Source: Alphaproteobacteria bacterium (lineage in GTDB: Bacteria > Pseudomonadota > Alphaproteobacteria > JAUHZY01). From it: a DNA stretch of 64,000 nt. The translations under genes were made by a program, and so were the position numbers. Shown one piece after another: positions 31,635-43,999 of this stretch (positions are counted from its first letter, which is position 1; the number at the start of each line of letters is the position of its first letter). The stretch spans positions 34,377 through 98,376 of the forward strand of contig JAUHZY010000002.1 of assembly GCA_030425825.1 (NCBI GenBank). The letters are read 5' to 3'. Below the pieces are notes generated by a model, which was not told the DNA's origin, ran no database searches, and was given only the letters and a program-made list of their open reading frames with translations.

Positions 31635-32735
31635 ATGGGATTTAAATGTGGAATTGTTGGCCTTCCGAATGTTGGTAAGTCAACTTTGTTTAACGCATTA
31701 ACATCAACGGCAACAGCCGAGGCTGCAAACTATCCGTTTTGTACGATTGAGCCGAATGTAGGGCGTGTTGCTGTTCCTGACGATCGTCTGAACAAGATTG
31801 TTGCAATTTCTAAGTCCGCCCAGGTTATCCCTACACAGCTTGAGTTTGTTGATATTGCTGGTTTGGTTAAGGGCGCCTCGAAAGGCGAGGGGCTTGGCAA
31901 CCAGTTTCTGGCTAATATTCGTGAAGTTGACGCGATTGTTCACGTTTTGAGATGCTTTGAAGACGGTAATATTACGCATGTTGAAGGTTCAGTAGACCCC
32001 ATACGTGATGCCGAAATCGTTGAAACAGAGCTTTTGATTGCAGATATGGAAAGCCTTGAAAAACAAAAACAACGCGTCGAAAAGCGCGCCAAAACAGGCG
32101 ATAAAGAATCGAAAGAAATTTTAAGTGTTGTTGAGAAGGTTCTACCAGTTTTACAGGATGGCCTTCCTGCCAGGACCGTTGAGCTAGAAGAAGAAGAGGA
32201 AAAGATTTGTGCATCGCTTTGCTTGATGACAAAAAAACCTATTCTTTATGTTTGTAATGTTGAAGAAGAAAATGCTGCTAATGGAAACTCTTTTAGTGAG
32301 AAGGTCAGTGAAAAAGCATCTTCAGAAAATGCAAAATCTGTTATTATCTCTGCATCGATAGAAGCAGAAGTATCAAGTCTTGAGTCGCAAGAAGAAAAAC
32401 TAGAGTTTTTGAAAGATTTAGGCCTTAGTGAAACCGGTCTTAGTCGCGTTATTCGTGCTGGCTATGAACTTTTAGGGTTGATTACTTTTTTCACAGTTGG
32501 TCCAAAAGAAGCGCGCGCATGGACTGTGCGCGAAAAGTCTACGGCGCCACAAGCCGCAGGTGTTATCCACACTGACTTTGAGCGTGGTTTTATTTGTGCT
32601 GATACCATGGCATATGATGATTTTATTTCTTGTGGTGGTGAGCAAGCAGCAAAAGAGCAGGGTAAACTGCGTCAAGAAGGGCGTGGATATATAGCAAAAG
32701 ATGGTGACATTTTTCACTTTAAATTTAACGTTTAA
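31635..32735 (+). CDS. ychF: Ribosome-associated ATPase YchF
   Basis: GIVGLPNVGKSTLFN, NYPFCTIEPN, DIAGLV.GAS.GEGLGN, IHTDFERGFI. Confidence 0.98.
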   Translation: MGFKCGIVGLPNVGKSTLFNALTSTATAEAANYPFCTIEPNVGRVAVPDDRLNKIVAISKSAQVIPTQLEFVDIAGLVKGASKGEGLGNQFLANIREVDAIVHVLRCFEDGNITHVEGSVDPIRDAEIVETELLIADMESLEKQKQRVEKRAKTGDKESKEILSVVEKVLPVLQDGLPARTVELEEEEEKICASLCLMTKKPILYVCNVEEENAANGNSFSEKVSEKASSENAKSVIISASIEAEVSSLESQEEKLEFLKDLGLSETGLSRVIRAGYELLGLITFFTVGPKEARAWTVREKSTAPQAAGVIHTDFERGFICADTMAYDDFISCGGEQAAKEQGKLRQEGRGYIAKDGDIFHFKFNV

Positions 32736-35700
32736 ACAACCATGATTCCATCAAGCCAGATATTATAACCTTCTGCAACAGCAAAAGAACGCAGGTCTGA
32801 TACACCGCCTAGAGGGGCAAGACCTGTTTGGTTAACAATCCTGATATTCTGCATGCCTGCACCTAAATTAGCTAAGTCATCCATTTTTATTTCAAATTCT
32901 GTTCCACCGCCATTGACGCTGACAACAAAGCCAACTGCACTGATTGAATATGAACCGCCCCCAAGATTTAAGGAAGATTCATTGAGGTATGAAATATATA
33001 GTATGTCGCCACCGGCTCTTGAGAAGTCAACAATGACATCATTTCCATCACCTACAAGTGACAAGAAAAGATTATCGTATGATTGTCCACCATTAACATT
33101 TATCAAGTCATACTCAAAATGGAATTGGTCTCCGCCTGTTCCGCCATACAACATATCATCGCCGCTATTTCCGTGTATAAAGTCACTACCAGAGTTACCA
33201 TAGAGAATATCGCTACCATCATTGCCAGAAATAAAGTCAGCTCCACTGCCACCAATAATGCTGTCGTTATCATTGTTACCTAAAAGGCTATCGTTTCCGT
33301 CGTCGCCAATAATAGTATCATCGCTATTATCACCAAGTATTGTGTCATTTCCTGCATCTCCACTGATGCTGTCTTCATCATTACCACCACGAATGGAGTC
33401 TGCACCGCTGCCACCAAAAATCGTGTCATCATCATCATCACCAATAATGGTATCATCATCATCACCACCTAAAATACTGTCACGACCACTGCCGCCATCT
33501 ATGGAGTCATTTCCTGAACTTCCGAACAATGTGTCACCACCGCCATCACCAAATAGTGTATCGTCATCATCACCACCATCAAGTGTGTCATCTCCGCTGT
33601 CGCCACCTAGAGAATCATCTCCTGTATTCCCAGCGATGGAGTCATCATCATCCCCGCCATAAAGGGTATCATTTCCTGTTTCACCGGAGATTGTATCATC
33701 ACCGCTGCCACCATTCATTGTGTCATCACCACTACCACCAAGAAGCGTATCATCTCCTGTATCACCAAAGACAGTGTCAAAGCCTGTGTCGCCGTCTAAT
33801 GAGTCATTTCCTGTGCCGCCTCTGATAGAATCCTCATTTGTGCCGCCACCAATTGTGTCATTTCCATCGCCACCATAAAGGGTATCATTTCCATCATCCC
33901 CTTCAATGCTATCATCTCCTGATCCGCCATCAATTGTATCTTGACCGCTGCTACCATCAATCGTGTCATCTCCACTATCGCCATTAATCGTGTCGTCACC
34001 GTCGTCACCGTCTAAGGTATCATTAGCGCTGTTTCCTTGAATAATATTGCTAGCTGTGTTCCCAAACCCATGTTGTGATCCTGTGCTTAGGTAAAGGTCT
34101 TCAATGTCATAGGTTGCTGTGATATTTCCAAGTGTTGCGGAGGTTATGCCCGCTACAACAAGTGCATCTCTTGTGCCTTCACCAGTTAATTCAGTAATAT
34201 TGTCTGTTCCTGAGTTGTCAGCGAAATATGAGTCATTTCCGATACCACCAATAAGCTCTTCTGTTCCGCTGCCACCATTTAGGAAGTCATTTCCGCTGCC
34301 ACCAAGTAATGTGTCATCACCCGATCCACCATTGAGGGTGTCATCACCACTTTGGCCAAGAACGGTGTCATCACCATCTTCACCGCTTAGTGTGTCGTCA
34401 CCATCATCGCCAATAATTGTGTTGTCTCGATCATTCCCGATGAGTTCTAGGTTAGTTCCAACATTAGCGATAATCCATTCAACATAGTCAGCACGTGTTA
34501 ACGCATCAAAGTTGACAGATGCATAGATGCTATCTGTTCCTTCTGCTGCAATTTCAACAATATTTGTGCCACTGTGACCAACATAATAAATGTCGTCATT
34601 CGCACCACCAACCATAGATCCTGCACCTACATTTGATCCAATAAAGGTATCATCGCCAATGCCGCCAATAAGTGTGTTGCTGTTAATTGAGCCATCAAGG
34701 TAATCGTTGCCAGAATTACCGTAAAGGAAGTCTTGTCCACTTGCGCCATAAAGCGAGTCATCACCAGATCCACCATAAGTGGTGTCATCACCAGATCCGC
34801 CATGAAGCGTATCATCGCCTGACTCTCCAGAAATAAGATCATTCCCATCATCACCTAAAACAGAATCGTCACCAATACCAGCATAGACAGAGTCATCAGC
34901 CTCAAGCGCATTTAATACATTATCTTCGTCATTCCCAATAATTGTGTTGGCAAGGTCATTTGCTGTTCCTGTTGTGGCTGTTCCTAGCAATCTCAAACCT
35001 TCAATACGTGGGCTGTTTGTAAGAACACTCAGGTCTATATTGCCATATGACCAAACTTCATCATTCCCACCACCTGCGGTGTCAGTGATCGTGAAGGTTT
35101 TTGAGGGATCAATAATATAAATATCGTCACCAAGGTCACCAATCAGTGTATTTGTTCCAGACATTGCATAGAAGGTGTCATTCCCCCATCCACCAACAAG
35201 TGTATTTACCCCACTATTCCCATCAAGGACGTCATTTCCTGTTGATCCATAAAGGCTGTCGTCATTACTGCCACCATATAATGTGTCGTCATCTTCTCCA
35301 CCGTCTATTGTGTCGTCACCGTCGCCACCAAAAACAGTATCATCGCCAGACCCACCATCTACAGTGTCATCACCGCTATGTCCTAAAACAGTGTCGTCAC
35401 CGCTGTCACCACCAACAGTATCGTCGCCAGACCCACCATAAAGAGTATTGTCTTCTGAGTTTCCTGTGATCATGTTGTCGCCATCATTACCGATACCGAT
35501 GATCCCGTTTCCAAGAAGTGTTAGGTTCTCAATATTAGAAATTGAAGAAAGGTCATAGTCTTGATTAATGGCTTGAACTTCGTCTGTTCCTTCACCAACA
35601 TTTTCTGAGAAGGTGTCTGTCGCAGCACCATTTATGATGTAGGTGTCATCGCCATTGCCGCCAAGAAGGGAGTTAGTTCCACCACCTCCAAACAAGGTGT

Positions 35701-38700
35701 CATTTCCAATGCCGCCAAGTAACGTATCATTTTCATCACCACCATAAAGGCTATCATCACCGTCATCTCCGTAAAGAGTGTCATCGCCAGACCCACTGTA
35801 GACAGTGTCATCACCAGATCCGCCGCTTAAGGTGTCATTTCCGCTGCTGCCACTTATCTCGTCATTTCCACTGTCACCTTCAATATGGCTGTCACCTGTT
35901 TGTCCAAGGATATAGTCATCCCCAATACCGCCAAGAAGGGTGTCATTCCCATCGCCACCAAGGAGTGTGTTGTCGCCATCAACAGCTGAAATATAATTAT
36001 CTAAATCATTTCCTGTAACAGTATGATTTCCTGTGCCCAGTAAGAAAACATTTTCGATTTGTAGTAATGCTGCCGTTGTCAAATCAACATCAGTATCTGT
36101 CGCTTCGATTGTGTCATTACCTGCTAGTTCAACAACCGTATCACCCGCATTATCAAACACGTAATAGTCATCACCAGAATTACCAATCAGAAGGTCAGAT
36201 CCACTACCGCCATCAAGCGTATCATTTGCACTTCCTGCAACGATTGTATCAGTGCCAGAACCCCCATCAAAAGAGTTGTTCCCTGATGTTCCGTAGAGGG
36301 AGTCGTCGCCCGTTCCTCCTCCTAAAGTGTCATCACCACTGCCGCCATGAAGTGTGTCATCATCATCATTGCCTTCCAATGTGTCATCGCCATCATCACC
36401 AGAAATATGATCATTTCCTGTGTTGCCTCGCAAAACATTGTCTAAAGCGTTTCCGAAAATGTTGTTGTCATAACTATTTGCCGTTGCATCAGTCGCTGTT
36501 CCAAGCAAAACAATGTTTTCAACTTCTTCATCGCTGGCGCCTCCTGAAAGGTTAATATCAGAATAGGCATAAACAACGTCTGTTCCTTCGCCAACACCTT
36601 CTTGGATCAGGAGTCCACCAGCAGGGTCAACATAATATGTGTCATTACCATCACCGCCATCAAGTGTGTTGTCACCATTCAATCCATAAAGAACATCTTC
36701 GCCAGACCCGCCATCAAGTGAGTCGTCACCGCTGTCACCATTAAGAGTATCATCACCGCTGCCACCAAAAACGGTGTCATCTGCACTGTCTCCACTTAAG
36801 GAGTTGTCTTCATCATTTCCTGTGATGATATTGTTGACTTCATTTCCTCTTCCGCTGATACCCGTGCCCAGAAGCGTTAAGTTTTCAATGTCCTCACCAC
36901 CAACAAGTGTATAGCTTGAGTTGATGACTTGAACTTCGTCTGTTCCTTCGCCAGGGTTCTCAGAAAAGCTGTTTGTTGCAGAGGGGTCGATAACATAAAC
37001 ATCATCACCAATGCCGCCAACCAGTGAGTTTATACCAACATCACCGATGAGTGTATCGTCGCCAACATCACCGATGAGTGTGTCGTTGTCACCACCACCA
37101 ACAAGAGAATCATTCCCTGTCGAGCCATCAAGCGTATTGTTTCCTGATCCACCATAAAGCGAGTCATCATCTTCACCACCATCAAGTGTATCATCTCCTG
37201 CGCCTGCAGATAAAACGTCATCACCTGTTCCGCCATGTGCTGTGTCGTTGCCGCTGCCACCTAATATAGAGTCATCATTTTCACCGCCCTCTATACTATC
37301 ATCACCATCATTGCCATCTAAGGTATCTTCACCTGTTCCACCACCAAGCGTGTCATTGCCATTTCCACCATCTAGTGTGTCATCGCCCTCATTCCCATCA
37401 AGCGTGTCATTGCCATTTCCACCGTCCAGTGTATCGTCGCCGTCATTCCCATCAAGCGTATCATCGCCGTCATTCCCATTAATCCAATCTTCATCGACTC
37501 CACCAACACCGCTGTCATCACCGCTGTCACCATAAATTGTATTGTTTCCTGATCCACCGAGTATTGTATCATTCCCAGAACCACCGCCTACACTGTCATC
37601 GCCACTGCCACCCATAACAGAGTCATCATCATCACCGCCGCCAAGTGTATCATCGCCTGTTTGTCCATAAAGGGTGTCGTCACCGCTGCCTCCGCTGCCG
37701 CTGTCATCACCGCTGCCACCAAAGATAGTGTCATCATCGTCTCCACCATCTAGTGTGTCATCACCTGTATTTCCAAAAATAGTATCATTTCCGCTGCCAC
37801 CGCCTAGGTTGTCATCACCTGTTTCTCCAAAAACAGAATCATTGCCTGATCCACCACGTAAGCTGTCATCGCCTGTTTGTCCGGAGACCGTGTCGTTGCC
37901 GTTGCCACCGTCTAATGTATCATTCCCATCGCCACCATAGACAGTATCGTCGCCACCTCCTCCTGTGCCAGAATCATTACCTGATCCACCATCAAGGGTA
38001 TCGTTATCTTCACCCCCGTCTAGATAGTCATTCCCAGTGCCACCATCCAGATAATCATTGCCTGATCCACCAGAAACATAATCATTACCCGCTTGGCCAA
38101 GAACAGAATCAATACCATCTTGCCCATCAAGTGTGTCGTTCCCAATACCACCACCTAGCGTGTCGTTATCACCGCCACCTAATAGGATATCATTCCCTGT
38201 ATTTCCTTCGACGCTATCATTTCCATCACCGCCCTGGAGGCTATCGTCACCATCTTCGCCACTTACACTGTCATTACCCGATCCACCGTCAAGTGTATCA
38301 TCACCAGACTTACCGCTGAGTGTATCTTCGCCTGAACCACCAAGGCCAGAATCATCCCCAGAGCCGCCATCAAGTGTGTCATTTCCATTGCCGCCATCAA
38401 GTGTGTCATCATCATTTCCACCATCAAGCGTGTCATTTCCATCGCCACCATCAAGAGAGTCATTTCCGCTCTCTCCTTCAAGTGTGTCATTTCCTGACCC
38501 GCCATCAAGAGTATCATCGTCGTCATCACCTAGGAGGCTATCTTCACCTGTGTTTCCTGACTCATAGTCATTCCCAGAACCGCCATGCAAAGTATCATCA
38601 TCTTCACCACCTTCAAGCGTGTCATTTCCGCTGTCACCAGACAGTGTATCTTCGCCTTCATTTCCTTGGATAGAGTCGTCGTCGTCATTCCCCATCAGGC

Positions 38701-41284
38701 TGTCATCATCTTCACCACCTAGAATGGTGTCATCTCCGTCGCCTCCTGATCCTGTGTCATTACTACTATGTCCAAGGATAAGGTCGTCACCACTTTCTCC
38801 TAGAAGGCTGTCTTCACCGCTGTCACCTTTTAGTGTGTCTTCATCGTCACCACCAAAAAGAGTATCGTCACCGCTGTCGCCGCTGACACAATCGTTCCCT
38901 GATCCACCATGAAGATTGTCATCTCCACTACCACCCAAAACGTCATCATTGCCTGATCCACCGTCAAGAGAGTCACTGCCTGTGCCGCCTTCTAAGACAT
39001 CATTTCCATTACCGCCAAGAAGAGTATCTTCTCCTGTGTTACCTTTTACAGTATCGTCACCATCACCACCATTTGCGCTATCATCACCGCTGCCGCCGAT
39101 GACACTGTCATTCCCACTGCCGCCATCTAGTGTGTCGTCACCATCATTTCCAAAAACGGTGTCATTCCCACTGTCTCCATTGCCGTAATCATCCCCAGAG
39201 TTTCCTTCAAGTGTGTCGTCGCCATCGCCACCACGCACGGTATCATCACCATCATTTCCTGATACGGTATCGTTCCCTGATCCGCCATCCAGTGTGTCAT
39301 CGCCAGTTGCACCTGATAACGTGTTATCTCCAGAGTTTCCTCTAATAGAGTTGTCATCTTCGTTTCCGGTGCCTGTATAGTTAGAAGAACCAAGTAGCGT
39401 AAGGTTTTCGAAGTTATTTGTTAAGGTATAGTCGTTGGCAATTTGGATTTCATCCGTGCCACTATTGATGTTTTCCTGAATGATGTCGCTGATATCAATG
39501 ATGTAAACATCATTTCCTGCGCCACCTGCCAAGGTATCGTTACCATCACCACCATCTAAAGTATCATTTCCTGCACCACCGATAAGAGAGTCTTGACCCT
39601 CATCGCCAACAAGAGAATCATCATCATTGCCACCATCCAGTGTGTCATCGCCGTCACCACCAAGAAGCGTGTCTTCGCCGTCTTCACCGATAACAGAATC
39701 GTTTCCACGACGAGCATTCACAAGATCATCACCAGAAAGTGCCGAAACGACATCATTTCCATTGCCGATGTTTAGTGTATCATCATTTGATGTTCCTACG
39801 ACCGTTGAGTCAGGGTCAGTGTTATCGAGTGTGATGTTGTAGTTATAATTTGCGCGTAATTCAGTCAAGTTTGCTGCGTCAAAGTCAGCACTGGCTATTT
39901 TTTGGTCACGCAGCCTCACAGCTTGGGCGCCACCTTGACCGGATATATGAAGAACAATGTCATCACCATCAGCCTCAACAGAAATAAGATCACTGTCATA
40001 AAAATCAAAAGTGCCATCGCCAAGCTGTACGGTTCTTGCATTTCCTATGTGTAAAACAAGCGCATCATTTTCATAGTCAAAATCAAGGATAAGATCACTA
40101 CCATCACCAGAAATATCATCAAGGTTGCTAATGTCACTATCAGAAACAAAATCTGACATATCATATTCAAACCTGAAAAGATCCTGGTCTTTCCCACCCA
40201 GCAGTGTGTCATTTCCTGCGCCACCGATAAGAGAGTCTTGCCCTTTATCTCCTTGAACCCAATCGTTGCCGTCGCCACCTAGCAGTGTGTCATGATCTTT
40301 TCCACCAATAATGAGGTCATTTCCATCGCCACCATCAAGGCTGTCATTGTCTTGTCCGCCCAGCAAGCTATCATGGCCAAGGCCACCCAATAACGTGTCA
40401 TTCCCAAAGCGCCCTTGGATAATGTCGTGATCAGCACCGCCGTCGGCAAAGTCATCACCAATATCACCAATGATACTGTCGTTGCCACCATCCCCTAGTA
40501 GAGAGTCGTCGTCTTTTCCGCCGCGAAGCGTATCCGATCCATTGCCGCCTAAGACAGTGTCTTGTCCTACATTTCCTTGCAGGTAGTCATTGCCTGTTTC
40601 TCCGTCTAGAAAATCGGCGCCATCTCCGCCAGACTGAATATCTTTTCCGTCGCCGCCACGAAGCGTGTCTCCGTCTTTATCGCCAAAAATAAGGTCATTG
40701 CCGCTATTGCCGTCGATGATGTCGCTGCCTTTTCCGCCACGAATTTTATCATCATCATCACCGCCTTGGATTGAGTCATTGCCGCGGTTTCCTTGCAGAT
40801 AATCTTTTCCTTCTCCACCTTCCACAGTGTCGTTATCGCCGCCACCGTAAATTGAGTCTTTGCCTTTGTTTCCTCTTAGGATGTCATCTCCAGCATTGCC
40901 AAAAATAATATCATTGCCATCGCCGCCATTAAGCTCGTCATCGCCGTCATCGCCATAAATTTGGTCGCCATATTTTCCGCCGTTTAAGGTGTTTTCATCC
41001 AAGTCTTCAAAAACGTCACTTGTGTTGTCGCCAACCAAAAGCTGCGTCCCATTTGCGAAGACAACACTTGGCTGCGTTCCTTCGCCAACAATAGCTTGCA
41101 GTGTGAGGTTGGGGATGAAAAGGCTGCCAATGTTTTTGACAACGAAAAGAGAGCCGTTTTCATTGGGATAAACAGTAACTTCTGAAGCTGTCACATTCGT
41201 TAGGTCAAGAATATCTTCTAGCGGATCAAATCCCAAGACAAGCCAAGGGTTTGCTACAGCAGATGTGAAAAGAATAGTCGACAT
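32732..41284 (-). CDS. Giant (2850 aa) RTX/hemolysin-type Ca-binding repeat protein, probable type I secretion substrate
   Basis: Very many GGxGxDxLx nonapeptides, Asp/Gly-rich, no signal peptide, eight spacer modules and non-repeat terminal domains. Confidence 0.92.
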   Translation of the reverse strand: MSTILFTSAVANPWLVLGFDPLEDILDLTNVTASEVTVYPNENGSLFVVKNIGSLFIPNLTLQAIVGEGTQPSVVFANGTQLLVGDNTSDVFEDLDENTLNGGKYGDQIYGDDGDDELNGGDGNDIIFGNAGDDILRGNKGKDSIYGGGDNDTVEGGEGKDYLQGNRGNDSIQGGDDDDKIRGGKGSDIIDGNSGNDLIFGDKDGDTLRGGDGKDIQSGGDGADFLDGETGNDYLQGNVGQDTVLGGNGSDTLRGGKDDDSLLGDGGNDSIIGDIGDDFADGGADHDIIQGRFGNDTLLGGLGHDSLLGGQDNDSLDGGDGNDLIIGGKDHDTLLGGDGNDWVQGDKGQDSLIGGAGNDTLLGGKDQDLFRFEYDMSDFVSDSDISNLDDISGDGSDLILDFDYENDALVLHIGNARTVQLGDGTFDFYDSDLISVEADGDDIVLHISGQGGAQAVRLRDQKIASADFDAANLTELRANYNYNITLDNTDPDSTVVGTSNDDTLNIGNGNDVVSALSGDDLVNARRGNDSVIGEDGEDTLLGGDGDDTLDGGNDDDSLVGDEGQDSLIGGAGNDTLDGGDGNDTLAGGAGNDVYIIDISDIIQENINSGTDEIQIANDYTLTNNFENLTLLGSSNYTGTGNEDDNSIRGNSGDNTLSGATGDDTLDGGSGNDTVSGNDGDDTVRGGDGDDTLEGNSGDDYGNGDSGNDTVFGNDGDDTLDGGSGNDSVIGGSGDDSANGGDGDDTVKGNTGEDTLLGGNGNDVLEGGTGSDSLDGGSGNDDVLGGSGDDNLHGGSGNDCVSGDSGDDTLFGGDDEDTLKGDSGEDSLLGESGDDLILGHSSNDTGSGGDGDDTILGGEDDDSLMGNDDDDSIQGNEGEDTLSGDSGNDTLEGGEDDDTLHGGSGNDYESGNTGEDSLLGDDDDDTLDGGSGNDTLEGESGNDSLDGGDGNDTLDGGNDDDTLDGGNGNDTLDGGSGDDSGLGGSGEDTLSGKSGDDTLDGGSGNDSVSGEDGDDSLQGGDGNDSVEGNTGNDILLGGGDNDTLGGGIGNDTLDGQDGIDSVLGQAGNDYVSGGSGNDYLDGGTGNDYLDGGEDNDTLDGGSGNDSGTGGGGDDTVYGGDGNDTLDGGNGNDTVSGQTGDDSLRGGSGNDSVFGETGDDNLGGGSGNDTIFGNTGDDTLDGGDDDDTIFGGSGDDSGSGGSGDDTLYGQTGDDTLGGGDDDDSVMGGSGDDSVGGGSGNDTILGGSGNNTIYGDSGDDSGVGGVDEDWINGNDGDDTLDGNDGDDTLDGGNGNDTLDGNEGDDTLDGGNGNDTLGGGTGEDTLDGNDGDDSIEGGENDDSILGGSGNDTAHGGTGDDVLSAGAGDDTLDGGEDDDSLYGGSGNNTLDGSTGNDSLVGGGDNDTLIGDVGDDTLIGDVGINSLVGGIGDDVYVIDPSATNSFSENPGEGTDEVQVINSSYTLVGGEDIENLTLLGTGISGRGNEVNNIITGNDEDNSLSGDSADDTVFGGSGDDTLNGDSGDDSLDGGSGEDVLYGLNGDNTLDGGDGNDTYYVDPAGGLLIQEGVGEGTDVVYAYSDINLSGGASDEEVENIVLLGTATDATANSYDNNIFGNALDNVLRGNTGNDHISGDDGDDTLEGNDDDDTLHGGSGDDTLGGGTGDDSLYGTSGNNSFDGGSGTDTIVAGSANDTLDGGSGSDLLIGNSGDDYYVFDNAGDTVVELAGNDTIEATDTDVDLTTAALLQIENVFLLGTGNHTVTGNDLDNYISAVDGDNTLLGGDGNDTLLGGIGDDYILGQTGDSHIEGDSGNDEISGSSGNDTLSGGSGDDTVYSGSGDDTLYGDDGDDSLYGGDENDTLLGGIGNDTLFGGGGTNSLLGGNGDDTYIINGAATDTFSENVGEGTDEVQAINQDYDLSSISNIENLTLLGNGIIGIGNDGDNMITGNSEDNTLYGGSGDDTVGGDSGDDTVLGHSGDDTVDGGSGDDTVFGGDGDDTIDGGEDDDTLYGGSNDDSLYGSTGNDVLDGNSGVNTLVGGWGNDTFYAMSGTNTLIGDLGDDIYIIDPSKTFTITDTAGGGNDEVWSYGNIDLSVLTNSPRIEGLRLLGTATTGTANDLANTIIGNDEDNVLNALEADDSVYAGIGDDSVLGDDGNDLISGESGDDTLHGGSGDDTTYGGSGDDSLYGASGQDFLYGNSGNDYLDGSINSNTLIGGIGDDTFIGSNVGAGSMVGGANDDIYYVGHSGTNIVEIAAEGTDSIYASVNFDALTRADYVEWIIANVGTNLELIGNDRDNTIIGDDGDDTLSGEDGDDTVLGQSGDDTLNGGSGDDTLLGGSGNDFLNGGSGTEELIGGIGNDSYFADNSGTDNITELTGEGTRDALVVAGITSATLGNITATYDIEDLYLSTGSQHGFGNTASNIIQGNSANDTLDGDDGDDTINGDSGDDTIDGSSGQDTIDGGSGDDSIEGDDGNDTLYGGDGNDTIGGGTNEDSIRGGTGNDSLDGDTGFDTVFGDTGDDTLLGGSGDDTMNGGSGDDTISGETGNDTLYGGDDDDSIAGNTGDDSLGGDSGDDTLDGGDDDDTLFGDGGGDTLFGSSGNDSIDGGSGRDSILGGDDDDTIIGDDDDDTIFGGSGADSIRGGNDEDSISGDAGNDTILGDNSDDTIIGDDGNDSLLGNNDNDSIIGGSGADFISGNDGSDILYGNSGSDFIHGNSGDDMLYGGTGGDQFHFEYDLINVNGGQSYDNLFLSLVGDGNDVIVDFSRAGGDILYISYLNESSLNLGGGSYSISAVGFVVSVNGGGTEFEIKMDDLANLGAGMQNIRIVNQTGLAPLGGVSDLRSFAVAEGYNIWLDGIMVV
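37351..37458 (-). repeat. Near-identical 54-bp tandem duplication inside the RTX gene
   Basis: tgtcattgccatttccacc.tc.agtgt.tc.tcgcc.tcattcccatcaagcg occurs twice in tandem. Confidence 0.75.
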
Positions 41285-42160: not shown

Positions 42161-42675
42161 TAAATAAAAAATTGCCGGTTTATACGCTGGCGTATATTTT
42201 TTCCATTTTCTTTATTAATTGGGGCTTCGTATTTTTTCCAACATTTGAATTGTCGAATGGCACCCCTTGGGCACCTTTCACAATTGTTGTTGGTCTTGTT
42301 TTTATCATACGAGACTTCGCTCAGCGTGAGATAGGTCATTATGTCTTGATTGCGACGTTGATCGGATGTGTTTTGGCCTATTTAACATCCGATCCAGGTG
42401 TGGCAATTGCAAGTGCTGGTGCATTTTTAATCAGTGAAGTTGTTGATTGGGGTGTTTACAGTTTTACAGGTAAAACATTGGCGCAAAGAATATTGATTTC
42501 TAGTGCTGTTGCAACACCTGTTGATACAACTTTTTTCTTGTGGGCAGTGGCGTATTTTTCTCCTGATATTGATGTTGGGGGAGTGTTCCATCTTTTCTCT
42601 ATTTTTGTTATGACAGCAAGCAAGATGATTGGCGCAATCGCTGTTTATTTTATGATAAAAAACAAGCCAAATTGA
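42157..42675 (+). CDS. VUT-family (YhhQ-like, putative queuosine-precursor) membrane transporter
   Basis: Hydrophobic; F..RDFAQREIG, AIAS..AFLISE..DW.VY, P.DT..F; ATGA overlap with the hydrolase gene. Confidence 0.8.
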   Translation: MINKKLPVYTLAYIFSIFFINWGFVFFPTFELSNGTPWAPFTIVVGLVFIIRDFAQREIGHYVLIATLIGCVLAYLTSDPGVAIASAGAFLISEVVDWGVYSFTGKTLAQRILISSAVATPVDTTFFLWAVAYFSPDIDVGGVFHLFSIFVMTASKMIGAIAVYFMIKNKPN

Positions 42676-42677
42676 TT

Positions 42678-42693
42678 TGGCACGTTTTTAGCA
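42678..42693 (+). promoter_or_regulatory. sigma54 (-24/-12) promoter of the flagellin gene
   Basis: TGGCACGTTTTTAGCA (GG-N10-GC), about 32 nt upstream of ATG 42725. Confidence 0.75.
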
Positions 42694-42724
42694 TCTTTAT
42701 ACTTTAAAGCTTTAAGAGGGTGAT

Positions 42725-43999
42725 ATGGTTGGTGGTATTCAACTTTCAACATTGTTAAGAAATAGTATTTTGAGTCGTGCGCAGGTTCAAGAGCAACTTT
42801 CTATTGTTGACCAACGCCTTCAAACAGGTGAAAAAGTAAATGACTTATTTGATAACCCTGCCGTTTTCTTTAAAGCGCAGTCTTTGTCAAAAGACGCAGC
42901 TGTTATGCTTCAGCGCAAAACAGAAATAGATCAAGGAATTAGCGCGCTAAAGGTGACAACAGATTCTATTGGACGCATTGAAGAAATGGTTGAAGGTATC
43001 AAGGGCCTTGCAGAGGAGGCAAAAAACCTGCCTGTTGATCAACGAGGTCATTTACAAAAACAAGCTGTCGCATTGGCGCAAGAGATTGATAAATATGCCG
43101 TTGATGCGAGCTATAATGGTGTGAACTTGCTCACAGGGGATGGTCGCCTATATGGTCCAGAACTTGTCTCAAATGGCAGCTTTGAAGATGGCGTGAATGG
43201 TTGGAGTGGTGGTGGAACACCTTCTGCGGCAATTATTGATGGATTGACCGCGGCAAATGTTGTTGATGCCGATGCGAGTAATAGAGACGGCATATTGCAG
43301 GCGGTTAACTTGACGTCAGGGAGTAATTATCTTATTTCGGGGCTTGCACAAAAATCAGATGTGAATCCAGCTGCAGGAACCCTTGACTTGGGAATATATT
43401 TTGGGTTGGGATTTAATACAACACCTAATCAAGAGGTTACTTTGTCTAATTATAATAACTGGGAAGAGTATGAGTTTGAATTCACGGCAGGGGGACAAAA
43501 TTCATTTTTCCAAATGTTCCCAACACGTTACAATAACCCACATACAGGAGAAGCATATTTTACACAAACCTCTGTGCGTGAGGTTGAATCTGATCCAACA
43601 TTTGAAGATACATTGACGATAAATTATTCAGACAGTGAAACGCGTACAATCAGCAGTGTTGATTTAAGAGCGCGCGCCTTGGGTATTTATAATGGTGAAA
43701 TTAATTTTTCTTCACAAGCTAATCTAGAAGCAACAATAGCACGTGTTGAAACAGCACTTGATACGATTGATGCAACAATGGATAATTTTTCAATAGAGTT
43801 TTCAGTCTTTCAACAAAGATTACAAATGACAGAGGTGCTTATTAATACAGCGCAAGAAGCAGAAAACAAGTTGATTGCTGCTGATATAACAGAAGAAGCA
43901 GCAAACAAACTTGCCCTGGAAACAAGAGATCAGTTGGTCATGGAGACACTGTCACTTGCAGCAAGTGCTCAGCGCAGCATAGTGTCATTGTTGGGCTAG
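42725..43999 (+). CDS. Flagellin with inserted carbohydrate-binding-module-like domain
   Basis: Flagellin N-terminus (RLQTGEKVN..FDNP..FF.A; DASYNGVNLL) and C-terminus (ADITEEAAN.LAL.TR.QL...LSLA...Q.SIVSLL); insert at residues ~144-287 runs ELVSNGSFE..W...SVREV. Confidence 0.85.
   Translation: MVGGIQLSTLLRNSILSRAQVQEQLSIVDQRLQTGEKVNDLFDNPAVFFKAQSLSKDAAVMLQRKTEIDQGISALKVTTDSIGRIEEMVEGIKGLAEEAKNLPVDQRGHLQKQAVALAQEIDKYAVDASYNGVNLLTGDGRLYGPELVSNGSFEDGVNGWSGGGTPSAAIIDGLTAANVVDADASNRDGILQAVNLTSGSNYLISGLAQKSDVNPAAGTLDLGIYFGLGFNTTPNQEVTLSNYNNWEEYEFEFTAGGQNSFFQMFPTRYNNPHTGEAYFTQTSVREVESDPTFEDTLTINYSDSETRTISSVDLRARALGIYNGEINFSSQANLEATIARVETALDTIDATMDNFSIEFSVFQQRLQMTEVLINTAQEAENKLIAADITEEAANKLALETRDQLVMETLSLAASAQRSIVSLLG

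Follow-up and report, generated by a model that had tools for sequence, protein, structure and literature searches.

A flagellin with a carbohydrate-binding-module-type beta-sandwich in its hypervariable region in an alphaproteobacterial genome

The stretch of 64,000 nucleotides considered here (the window; NCBI GenBank assembly GCA_030425825.1, contig JAUHZY010000002.1, positions 34,377 to 98,376 of the forward strand) comes from an alphaproteobacterial genome of 1.95 Mb in 11 contigs, with ~41% G+C and 99% completeness. It carries a gene for a 424-residue flagellin, hereafter the target, whose two helical ends are separated by a domain of the carbohydrate-binding module (CBM) type (Table 1). 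The open reading frame (ORF) has 424 codons, starts with ATG and is free of internal stops. A first-pass annotation, made from the DNA letters alone, had described this gene as a flagellin interrupted by a jelly roll of the CBM4/9/16 type, and had proposed a fold check of the insert, a search for other flagellins with a CBM and a count of the flagellins in the genome.

The flagellin character of both ends, claimed in that annotation, is confirmed. The N-terminal region matches Pfam Flagellin_N at residues 19-138 (E 1.1e-10, 42.1 bits for a cut-off of 26.6). When the target protein was searched against sequences of solved structures, the top matches were Caulobacter flagellins of 270-273 residues (E ~2e-10). 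The alignment to one of them, the 273-residue 6xl0_A, falls into two pieces: target residues 22-139 correspond to residues 23-142 and target residues 302-422 to residues 152-271 (independent E-value 0.011), so that ~160 residues of the target occupy the space of ~9 in that flagellin. This is the insertion point that had been named from the motifs GVNLLTGD and DTLTINYSD...SVDL, which are both present in the translation together with the other quoted motifs of the block, GPELVSNGSFEDG..GW, GILQAVNLTSGSNYLISG, WEEYEFEFTA and AYFTQTSVREV. In the 273-residue flagellin encoded by the same genome, GVNLL leads directly on to LHVDFTDDTFTTINSVD, without an insert. The homology of the C-terminal region to flagellins is indicated by the 6xl0_A alignment, by a match of NCBIfam PRK12688 to residues 298-423 (E 1.1e-22, with a score far under the full-length cut-off of the model) and by the last 120 residues, which are 34-50% identical to those of the 18 other flagellins compared. 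For instance, they share 45% identity with the 273-residue flagellin of the genome itself, a Flagellin_C match. In the ESM Atlas, the whole protein lies nearest to clusters of plain flagellins (score 0.93). The hook-filament junction-type homologue FlgL was ruled out as an identity for the target, with 25.5 bits for TIGR02550 against a cut-off of 127; a separate flgL adjoins flgK and flgE.

The insert was assigned to a family at the levels of sequence and predicted structure. Pfam CBM_4_9 (PF02018) matches residues 146-258 over profile positions 2-121 of 136 (E 1.7e-7, 32.1 bits for a cut-off of 25.9; 34.5 bits in a six-frame search of the genome). A full HMMER pass with residues 138-297 over 1.84 billion representative proteins returned 45 matches at E <= 0.001. 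A Pfam scan of 43 of the 44 non-self matches, leaving out the 7241-residue P0038 as too long, found CBM_4_9 in 27, and in the remainder mostly Laminin_G_3 or DUF642, a few having other families or none. Residues N150, F153, W160 and Y202 do not vary among the 19 aligned domains, that is, the insert and 18 relatives. The profile built from these domains retrieved, among PDB sequences, 1GUI (CBM4, E 2.6e-11), 2ZEX (CBM16, E 4e-8) and 1GU3/1ULO ('Endoglucanase C', E 4e-7); 1GU3 appears in the structure lists under the title 'CBM4 structure and function'.

Structure prediction led to the same family. A single-sequence AlphaFold2 model of the whole target was unusable for the insert (predicted local distance difference test, pLDDT, 41), and a model of the insert was built instead from the alignment with the 18 relatives. 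It is all-beta, with ten strands, a mean pLDDT of 88.0 and a predicted template-modelling (TM) score of 0.84. In a Foldseek search of the PDB, its top match was 2zex_A (CBM16, E 1.4e-8, TM 0.66/0.71), followed by CBM4, CBM22 and porphyran-, hyaluronan- and alginate-binding modules. VIA-align, a structure search independent of Foldseek, placed it with two CBM22 domains, 2w5f_A (Z 14.1, root-mean-square deviation (rmsd) 2.5 Å, 131 aligned residues) and 4xup_A (Z 13.8, 2.7 Å, 141 residues), with CBM16 2zew_A (Z 13.6, 2.9 Å, 132 residues), with the porphyran-binding CBM 8xmz_B (Z 13.6, 2.5 Å, 128 residues) and with CBM4 1gui_A (Z 12.6, 2.3 Å, 124 residues). The fold class of the modelled insert is thereby established, and Pfam, the PDB-sequence profile and the predicted fold all agree with the jelly roll proposed at first. 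A comparison in the ESM Atlas, whose scores of 0.76-0.79 are leads only, also puts the insert nearest to CBM_4_9 clusters. Collectively, sequence and model support the description of the target as a flagellin with a CBM4/9/16-type beta-sandwich in its hypervariable region. A lectin-like, sugar-binding role of this domain is plausible. In the pairwise alignment to 2zex, W160 corresponds to the Trp at chain position 20 (motif S-W-Q), presumably a ligand contact in CBM16; this alignment does not extend to the second half of the cleft.

The same architecture occurs in a second organism. Among the 43 scanned insert matches, one protein is a flagellin, P0037; it has 435 residues, is encoded on a contig of another organism and is matched at residues 138-305, that is, at the same position. 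It is thus the one further CBM flagellin found among the 1.84 billion representative proteins. Compared along their entire length, the target and P0037 show 43% identity, and they have both junctions in common, GVNLL(T/S)GDGRLYGPEL and (F/Y)EDTLTI. In a tree of the 19 domains, the CBMs of the two flagellins pair with a support of 81/85; P0037 sits on a long branch, and a CBM copy from an RTX-repeat protein of the target's own genome (see below) falls in the same unresolved clade as both. The shared junctions and the pairing in the domain tree point to a single insertion event, since retained through much divergence. The contig of P0037 (143,724 bp) carries a second flagellin, P0081, of 436 residues, with D0/D1 regions 83-84% identical to those of P0037 and a different, beta-rich insert of ~170 residues without a Pfam family match. 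Three further homologues of P0037, the LamG flagellins P0093, P0094 and P0095, are encoded on a 918,100-bp contig of yet another organism.

Other searches returned no additional CBM flagellin. A word-indexed homologue search with the whole target gave 36 matches, none of which contains PF02018 except the query, and with the insert alone 1 of 966 candidates passed, the query itself. The insert had a match in 0 of 60 genomes of the same class; these 60 nearest genomes share the class only, with none from the same order, family or genus, and no near kin of this lineage seem to exist among the species compared. When an alignment of the two CBM flagellins was run against public genome contigs, 155 pattern matches were obtained and 0 confirmed. 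The same alignment gave three loci in public metagenome contigs, two of small-flagellin length and one consisting of a C-terminal piece only. With an alignment of 14 flagellins, 12 loci were found in public genome contigs, and the five that were checked, which included all three with matches of more than 1.8 kb, are small or tandem flagellins of 291-329 residues without inserts. As judged from these sequences, the CBM-flagellin chimera is conserved but rare.

Within its own genome, the insert has one other match, with 46-48% identity (E 1.6e-37). This copy corresponds to residues ~2009-2160 of a 2383-residue protein that also contains 48 RTX-repeat matches and two LamG domains, and in a six-frame search these two places are the only CBM_4_9 matches of the genome. 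The target is one of ten insert-bearing flagellins in the genome, and the nearest relative of its CBM is part of an RTX-repeat protein made by the same cell. This strengthens the reading of a binding module borrowed from a surface protein, but also raises the rival reading of outer-domain diversification for its own sake, discussed below. Inserts of four other flagellins have comparable relatives. The LamG insert of a 493-residue flagellin is 61.5% identical to part of a 3532-residue RTX-repeat protein, and that of a 486-residue flagellin 42% identical to the domain that immediately precedes the CBM of the 2383-residue protein. Two proteins without an RTX match complete the set: a 1054-residue LamG protein, 44% identical to the LamG insert of a 504-residue flagellin, and a 1013-residue LamG protein, 33% identical to the insert of a 462-residue flagellin that has no Pfam family. 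The propeller-type inserts described below match one another only. Since five inserts match large LamG-rich proteins, two of which are RTX-repeat proteins, the flagellins and these proteins share, by sequence comparison, one pool of beta-sandwich modules, with transfer conceivable in either direction.

The genes for the 3532- and 2383-residue proteins are adjacent, each with 47-48 RTX-repeat matches and LamG domains, and two paired LamG flagellin genes are located 17 kb away. In the window, a 2850-residue ORF at 1.4 kb from the target has nonapeptide repeats of the GGxGxD type that look RTX-like by eye; no flagellin insert of the genome matched it in a tblastn search.

A six-frame search located Flagellin_N at 13 places in the genome, representing FlgL and 12 flagellins, that is, 11 besides the target. 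Two of these flagellins, of 273 residues, lack an insert. The other ten, target included, all carry one: five of 458-504 residues have Laminin_G_3 (LamG) inserts, three of 574-592 residues have inserts of the seven-bladed-propeller type (PF10282), one of 462 residues has an insert without a Pfam family, and the target has its CBM_4_9 domain (all by Pfam). At least three unrelated fold classes are therefore found at the same position. The genome also encodes flgE, flgK, flgL, flhA, fliF and rpoN, with a sigma-54 activator ~1.3 kb from flhA. The genes flbT and flaF adjoin the two plain 273-residue flagellin genes, as does a gene for a glycosyltransferase with tetratricopeptide repeats (TPR). FliS and FliD were not found in the genome, and a Caulobacter control genome was equally silent for both. 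Judged by its gene content, the flagellum is an alphaproteobacterial one of the Caulobacter type, with an extraordinary set of filament genes.

Some neighbours of these genes deserve mention. The TPR protein, of 751 residues and with a GT41-like glycosyltransferase part, is encoded right after flbT, flaF and the two plain flagellins, and resembles the flagellin glycosyltransferase FlmG of Caulobacter; by this analogy, the flagellins of the genome may be glycosylated. A tandem pair of insert-bearing flagellin genes ~3 kb 5' of the window start is flanked by a TPR/Sel1 gene and citrate synthase. Directly 3' of flgL, two ORFs of 586 and 337 codons belong to no clear family, their sole match being a sub-threshold one to ArabFuran-catal (E 6e-6, no stretch passing); they could encode further flagellar or surface components.

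Eight of the 11 paralogs form a group, named MINDIK after its common N-terminus MINDIKLTSAMR, with 93-100% nucleotide identity over the first 180 nt and 64-91% over the last 300 nt. A repeated unit of ~105 nt precedes the genes of this group. In the tandem arrays, the first 22 nt of the gene itself are copied at the start of the unit, and its end is formed by the ribosome-binding site and ATG of the gene that follows. The stop codon of each gene overlaps the ATG of a 36-codon mini-ORF within the unit, and the stop of this mini-ORF overlaps the ATG of the following gene; the encoded peptide starts (MINDIKL) and ends (GGGS) in a flagellin-like manner. As RNA, the unit folds at -37.4 kcal/mol, a value without a shuffle control. 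It could act as a translational-coupling leader, as a leader targeted by FlbT/FlaF or as a substrate for recombination. The target and the 486-residue LamG flagellin stand apart from the MINDIK group, and the target lacks the leader unit.

The short gap upstream of the target holds a candidate sigma-54 element, TGGCACGTTTTTAGCA, with one mismatch to the consensus TGGCACGNNNNTTGCW. Similar elements are located ahead of flgE (a perfect match), of the gene for the 486-residue flagellin and of the leading genes in three flagellin clusters, such as CGGCACGTATTTGGCA before the first gene of the array of four.

Table 1. Positions of the target, its parts and other features mentioned in the text. Plain numbers are window positions; C2 and C5 are contigs of the genome.
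Feature	Position	Strand	Basis or remark
Whole gene, 424-aa flagellin with inserted CBM domain	42725-43999	+	Stop codon included; ORF list, translation, Pfam
N-terminal D0/D1 helical region, residues 1-137	42725..43135	+	Pfam Flagellin_N; alignment to 6xl0_A
Inserted beta-jelly-roll, CBM4/16/22 type, with linkers, residues 138-297	43136..43615	+	Pfam, PDB-sequence profile, AlphaFold2 model, Foldseek, VIA-align
Pfam CBM_4_9 match inside insert, residues 146-258	43160-43498	+	
C-terminal D1/D0 helical region, residues 298-424	43616..43996	+	6xl0_A alignment; PRK12688; helices in single-sequence model
Shine-Dalgarno-like GAGGG	42716..42720	+	4 nt 5' of ATG; sequence read directly
Candidate sigma-54 -24/-12 element TGGCACGTTTTTAGCA	42678..42693	+	31 nt before ATG, in 49-nt intergenic gap; sequence
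6-bp hairpin and T-run, possible terminator of upstream ORF (ends 42675)	42666..42681	+	Terminator-like scan
2850-aa ORF with RTX-like repeats	32732-41284	-	
CBM copy in 2383-aa RTX-repeat protein	C2:514232-514687		
Adjacent genes for 3532- and 2383-aa RTX-repeat proteins	C2:497613-515359 (L017)		
Pair of LamG flagellin genes	C2:532739-535788		
Four tandem flagellin genes	C2:1255096-1262058 (L011:5097-12059)	-	590 aa propeller, 458 aa LamG, 592 and 574 aa propeller
Two tandem flagellin genes	C5:28389-31314 (L009:8390-11315)		462 aa (insert without Pfam family), 477 aa (Laminin_G_3)
TPR/GT41-like glycosyltransferase gene	C2:1346933-1349185 (L012:10934-13186)		
Two ORFs 3' of flgL, 586 and 337 aa	C2:882734-885507 (L013:4735-7507)	-	
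~105-nt unit copies, C2	1256818-1256944, 1258700-1258826, 1260180-1260306, 535786-536014, 780-861		Two in tandem at 535786-536014
~105-nt unit copies, C5	28307-28391, 29757-29883		

The closest functional analogy is flagellinolysin, and the comparison with it drawn in the first-pass annotation is a fair one. In flagellinolysin (FlaMP) of Clostridium haemolyticum and Hylemonella gracilis, as in the target, a foreign globular domain lies between the N- and C-terminal D1 helices, a position from which many copies of the flagellinolysin domain are presented on the filament (PMC5595980, PMC7643111); according to the available text of PMC5595980, flagellinolysin filaments display active enzyme. The flagellinolysin insert is an HExxH metallopeptidase, whereas that of the target is a non-catalytic jelly roll of the CBM type. 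The target itself was ruled out as a flagellinolysin: the match of NF033876 reaches 21.1 bits where the cut-off is 205, in the flagellin part only (residues 110-141), and HExxH is absent from the sequence. The modules closest to the insert in family and fold, the CBM4, CBM16 and CBM22 domains of glycoside hydrolases (1GUI, 2ZEX, 2W5F, 4XUP; Z 12.6-14.1, rmsd 2.3-2.9 Å for 124-141 residues), occur as appendages of enzymes, with known ligands; the module of the target is embedded in a flagellin and is 17-21% identical to them. The multi-flagellin system of Caulobacter (FljJ-O, under FlaF/FlbT control) resembles the present one in providing the top solved relatives, in FlbT, FlaF, the TPR-glycosyltransferase and sigma-54, and in that FliS and FliD were not found. 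Its flagellins have no outer domain, in contrast to 10 of the 12 described here.

Polysaccharide binding by alphaproteobacterial flagellins is itself described. In the available text of PMC9751261, the flagellins p5 and p6 of Sphingomonas sp. A1 bind alginate at the cell surface with a Kd of ~nM, through a site in the helical part called the 'spoke' (residues 20-40 together with 353-363), whereas the candidate site of the target lies in the inserted CBM. The outer domain of p5 is described as Ig-like in the part available of Fields et al. 2024 (PMC11532411), where outer domains recruited from pre-existing proteins of the cell (clusters of the peptidase, protease and WD40 kinds) follow the same principle as the target. 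The three propeller flagellins of this genome may belong to that WD40 cluster. The words carbohydrate, lectin, jelly, laminin and concanavalin are absent from the main text of Fields et al., as far as it was available, and its supplementary table may list a CBM-like cluster. No published description of a flagellin with a CBM or LamG insert was found in the literature searched, a scope with subscription journals and supplements outside it.

The preferred reading of these data is that the target serves as the subunit of a sugar-binding filament, a tentative proposal whose chance, taken over the whole chain of steps, we put a little short of even. The gene would be transcribed as a late flagellar gene, possibly from the sigma-54 promoter, and its product exported by the flagellar type III system through the N-terminal D0 region. 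Polymerization via D0/D1 would then place it in the filament, either mixed with other flagellins or as a segment of its own. With one CBM facing outward per subunit, a dense repeating array of binding modules would result, which could bind a polysaccharide or glycoconjugate with high avidity, so that the flagellum would double as an attachment organelle. Several observations weigh against this chain. The target gene lies among housekeeping genes, apart from the other flagellar genes. Its sigma-54 element is weak when taken alone and serves as a lead only, since the pattern has 2 matches in the window where 0.77 are expected, a count that is also attained in 14 of 100 shuffles; furthermore, the -24 part overlaps a terminator-like hairpin, an element of a class represented three times in the region for 1.9 expected, which is not significant. 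Pfam Flagellin_C was not reported in the target at E <= 10. The D0/D1 regions are only 34-49% identical to those of the 11 paralogs, compared with the 93-100% identity of 5' nucleotides among eight of them, and this divergence, recognized already in the first annotation, means that the target may assemble poorly or not at all with its paralogs. The CBM_4_9 match reaches 121 of 136 profile positions, with a margin of only 6 bits over the cut-off. Finally, the fold lists of the insert also include domains of Cry and Vip toxins, phage fibres and Stig cyclases; since the same fold is found in proteins that do not bind sugars, it does not give the function.

A rival reading is a diversification of outer domains without any lectin function, in which sturdy beta-rich domains vary or thicken the filament surface and glycan binding is lost or irrelevant. 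Such domains could help the cell to evade flagellotropic phages or grazers, or to swim better in media that are viscous or rich in particles, and the available text of two reports assigns motility roles in viscous media to outer domains (PMC8931119, PMC10256154). The occurrence of at least three unrelated fold classes at one position in ten flagellins speaks for this reading, as does the look of a recombining cassette family in the eight genes whose 5' ends are 93-100% identical and between which a leader unit is repeated; most of the 682 structural clusters of outer domains are likewise without known function, according to the available part of PMC11532411. However, the inserts are not arbitrary folds: five of the ten have their best match, in the genome outside flagellin genes, in large LamG-rich proteins, three of them in the two RTX-repeat proteins and two in proteins of ~1000 residues without an RTX match. 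The target is also outside the near-identical cassette group. Its CBM chimera recurs in a second organism, where the protein is 43% identical and the junctions are the same, and this favours a function that has been retained rather than rapid turnover. We regard diversification alone as somewhat unlikely. A further reading, a modular 'adhesive flagellum', seems rather doubtful to us: here CBM, LamG and propeller modules would recombine between RTX- or LamG-rich surface proteins and flagellin cassettes, forming lectin-like arrays by segment or by switching, and the target would be an older member with its own promoter, kept across lineages for its recognition of one polysaccharide.

The divergence of D0/D1 from all 11 paralogs (34-49% identity), the unreported Flagellin_C match and the solitary locus among housekeeping genes could also be those of a flagellin-like binding protein that leaves the cell by type III export and acts in the secreted state or at the cell surface, not as a filament subunit. 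Campylobacter FlaC is an example of such an exported non-filament protein. A weak match of the target to 3k8v (PDB title 'Flagellin homolog', E 7.4e-5), presumably Sphingomonas p5, goes in the same direction, and p5 and p6 are cell-surface flagellin homologues that bind polysaccharide, as given in the available text of PMC9751261. On the other hand, both helical regions of the target are complete and can be aligned over their whole extent with Caulobacter flagellins that form filaments, and the top solved matches are filament flagellins rather than FlgL or FlaC-like proteins. P0037, moreover, has the same insert on D0/D1 regions that are 67-70% (N-terminal) and 53-64% (C-terminal) identical to those of the MINDIK group, and a non-filament role is in our view unlikely. 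An assembly chimera or a decaying gene, with no functional feature at all, is hardly credible. The target gene occurs in one genome only, and although the whole stretch is a single contig of even depth in the assemblies of two public runs, both runs may be the source of this DNA, so that their agreement is not independent support. Against an artefact stand the intact frame with a good ribosome-binding site, the confident model of the insert (pLDDT 88), the unbroken contig with its even depth and the same junctions in an independent protein of another organism.

The target is a real and rare variant of a domain-displaying flagellin, not a new category. Outer domains of flagellins vary greatly, and a role is known for hardly any of them; the protease-bearing flagellinolysin is the clear exception. 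With a filament subunit whose CBM is common to an RTX-repeat protein of the same cell, the idea of a flagellum made for binding a defined class of ligands becomes open to test, and the case is made stronger by the presence of 12 flagellins in 1.95 Mb, ten of them with inserts and eight of them near-identical cassettes. The genome provides a natural system in which to study the entry of foreign domains into flagellin, how outer domains of different sizes share a filament, and whether motility and attachment combine in one organelle. The target itself would also be a natural scaffold for the display of proteins on filaments.

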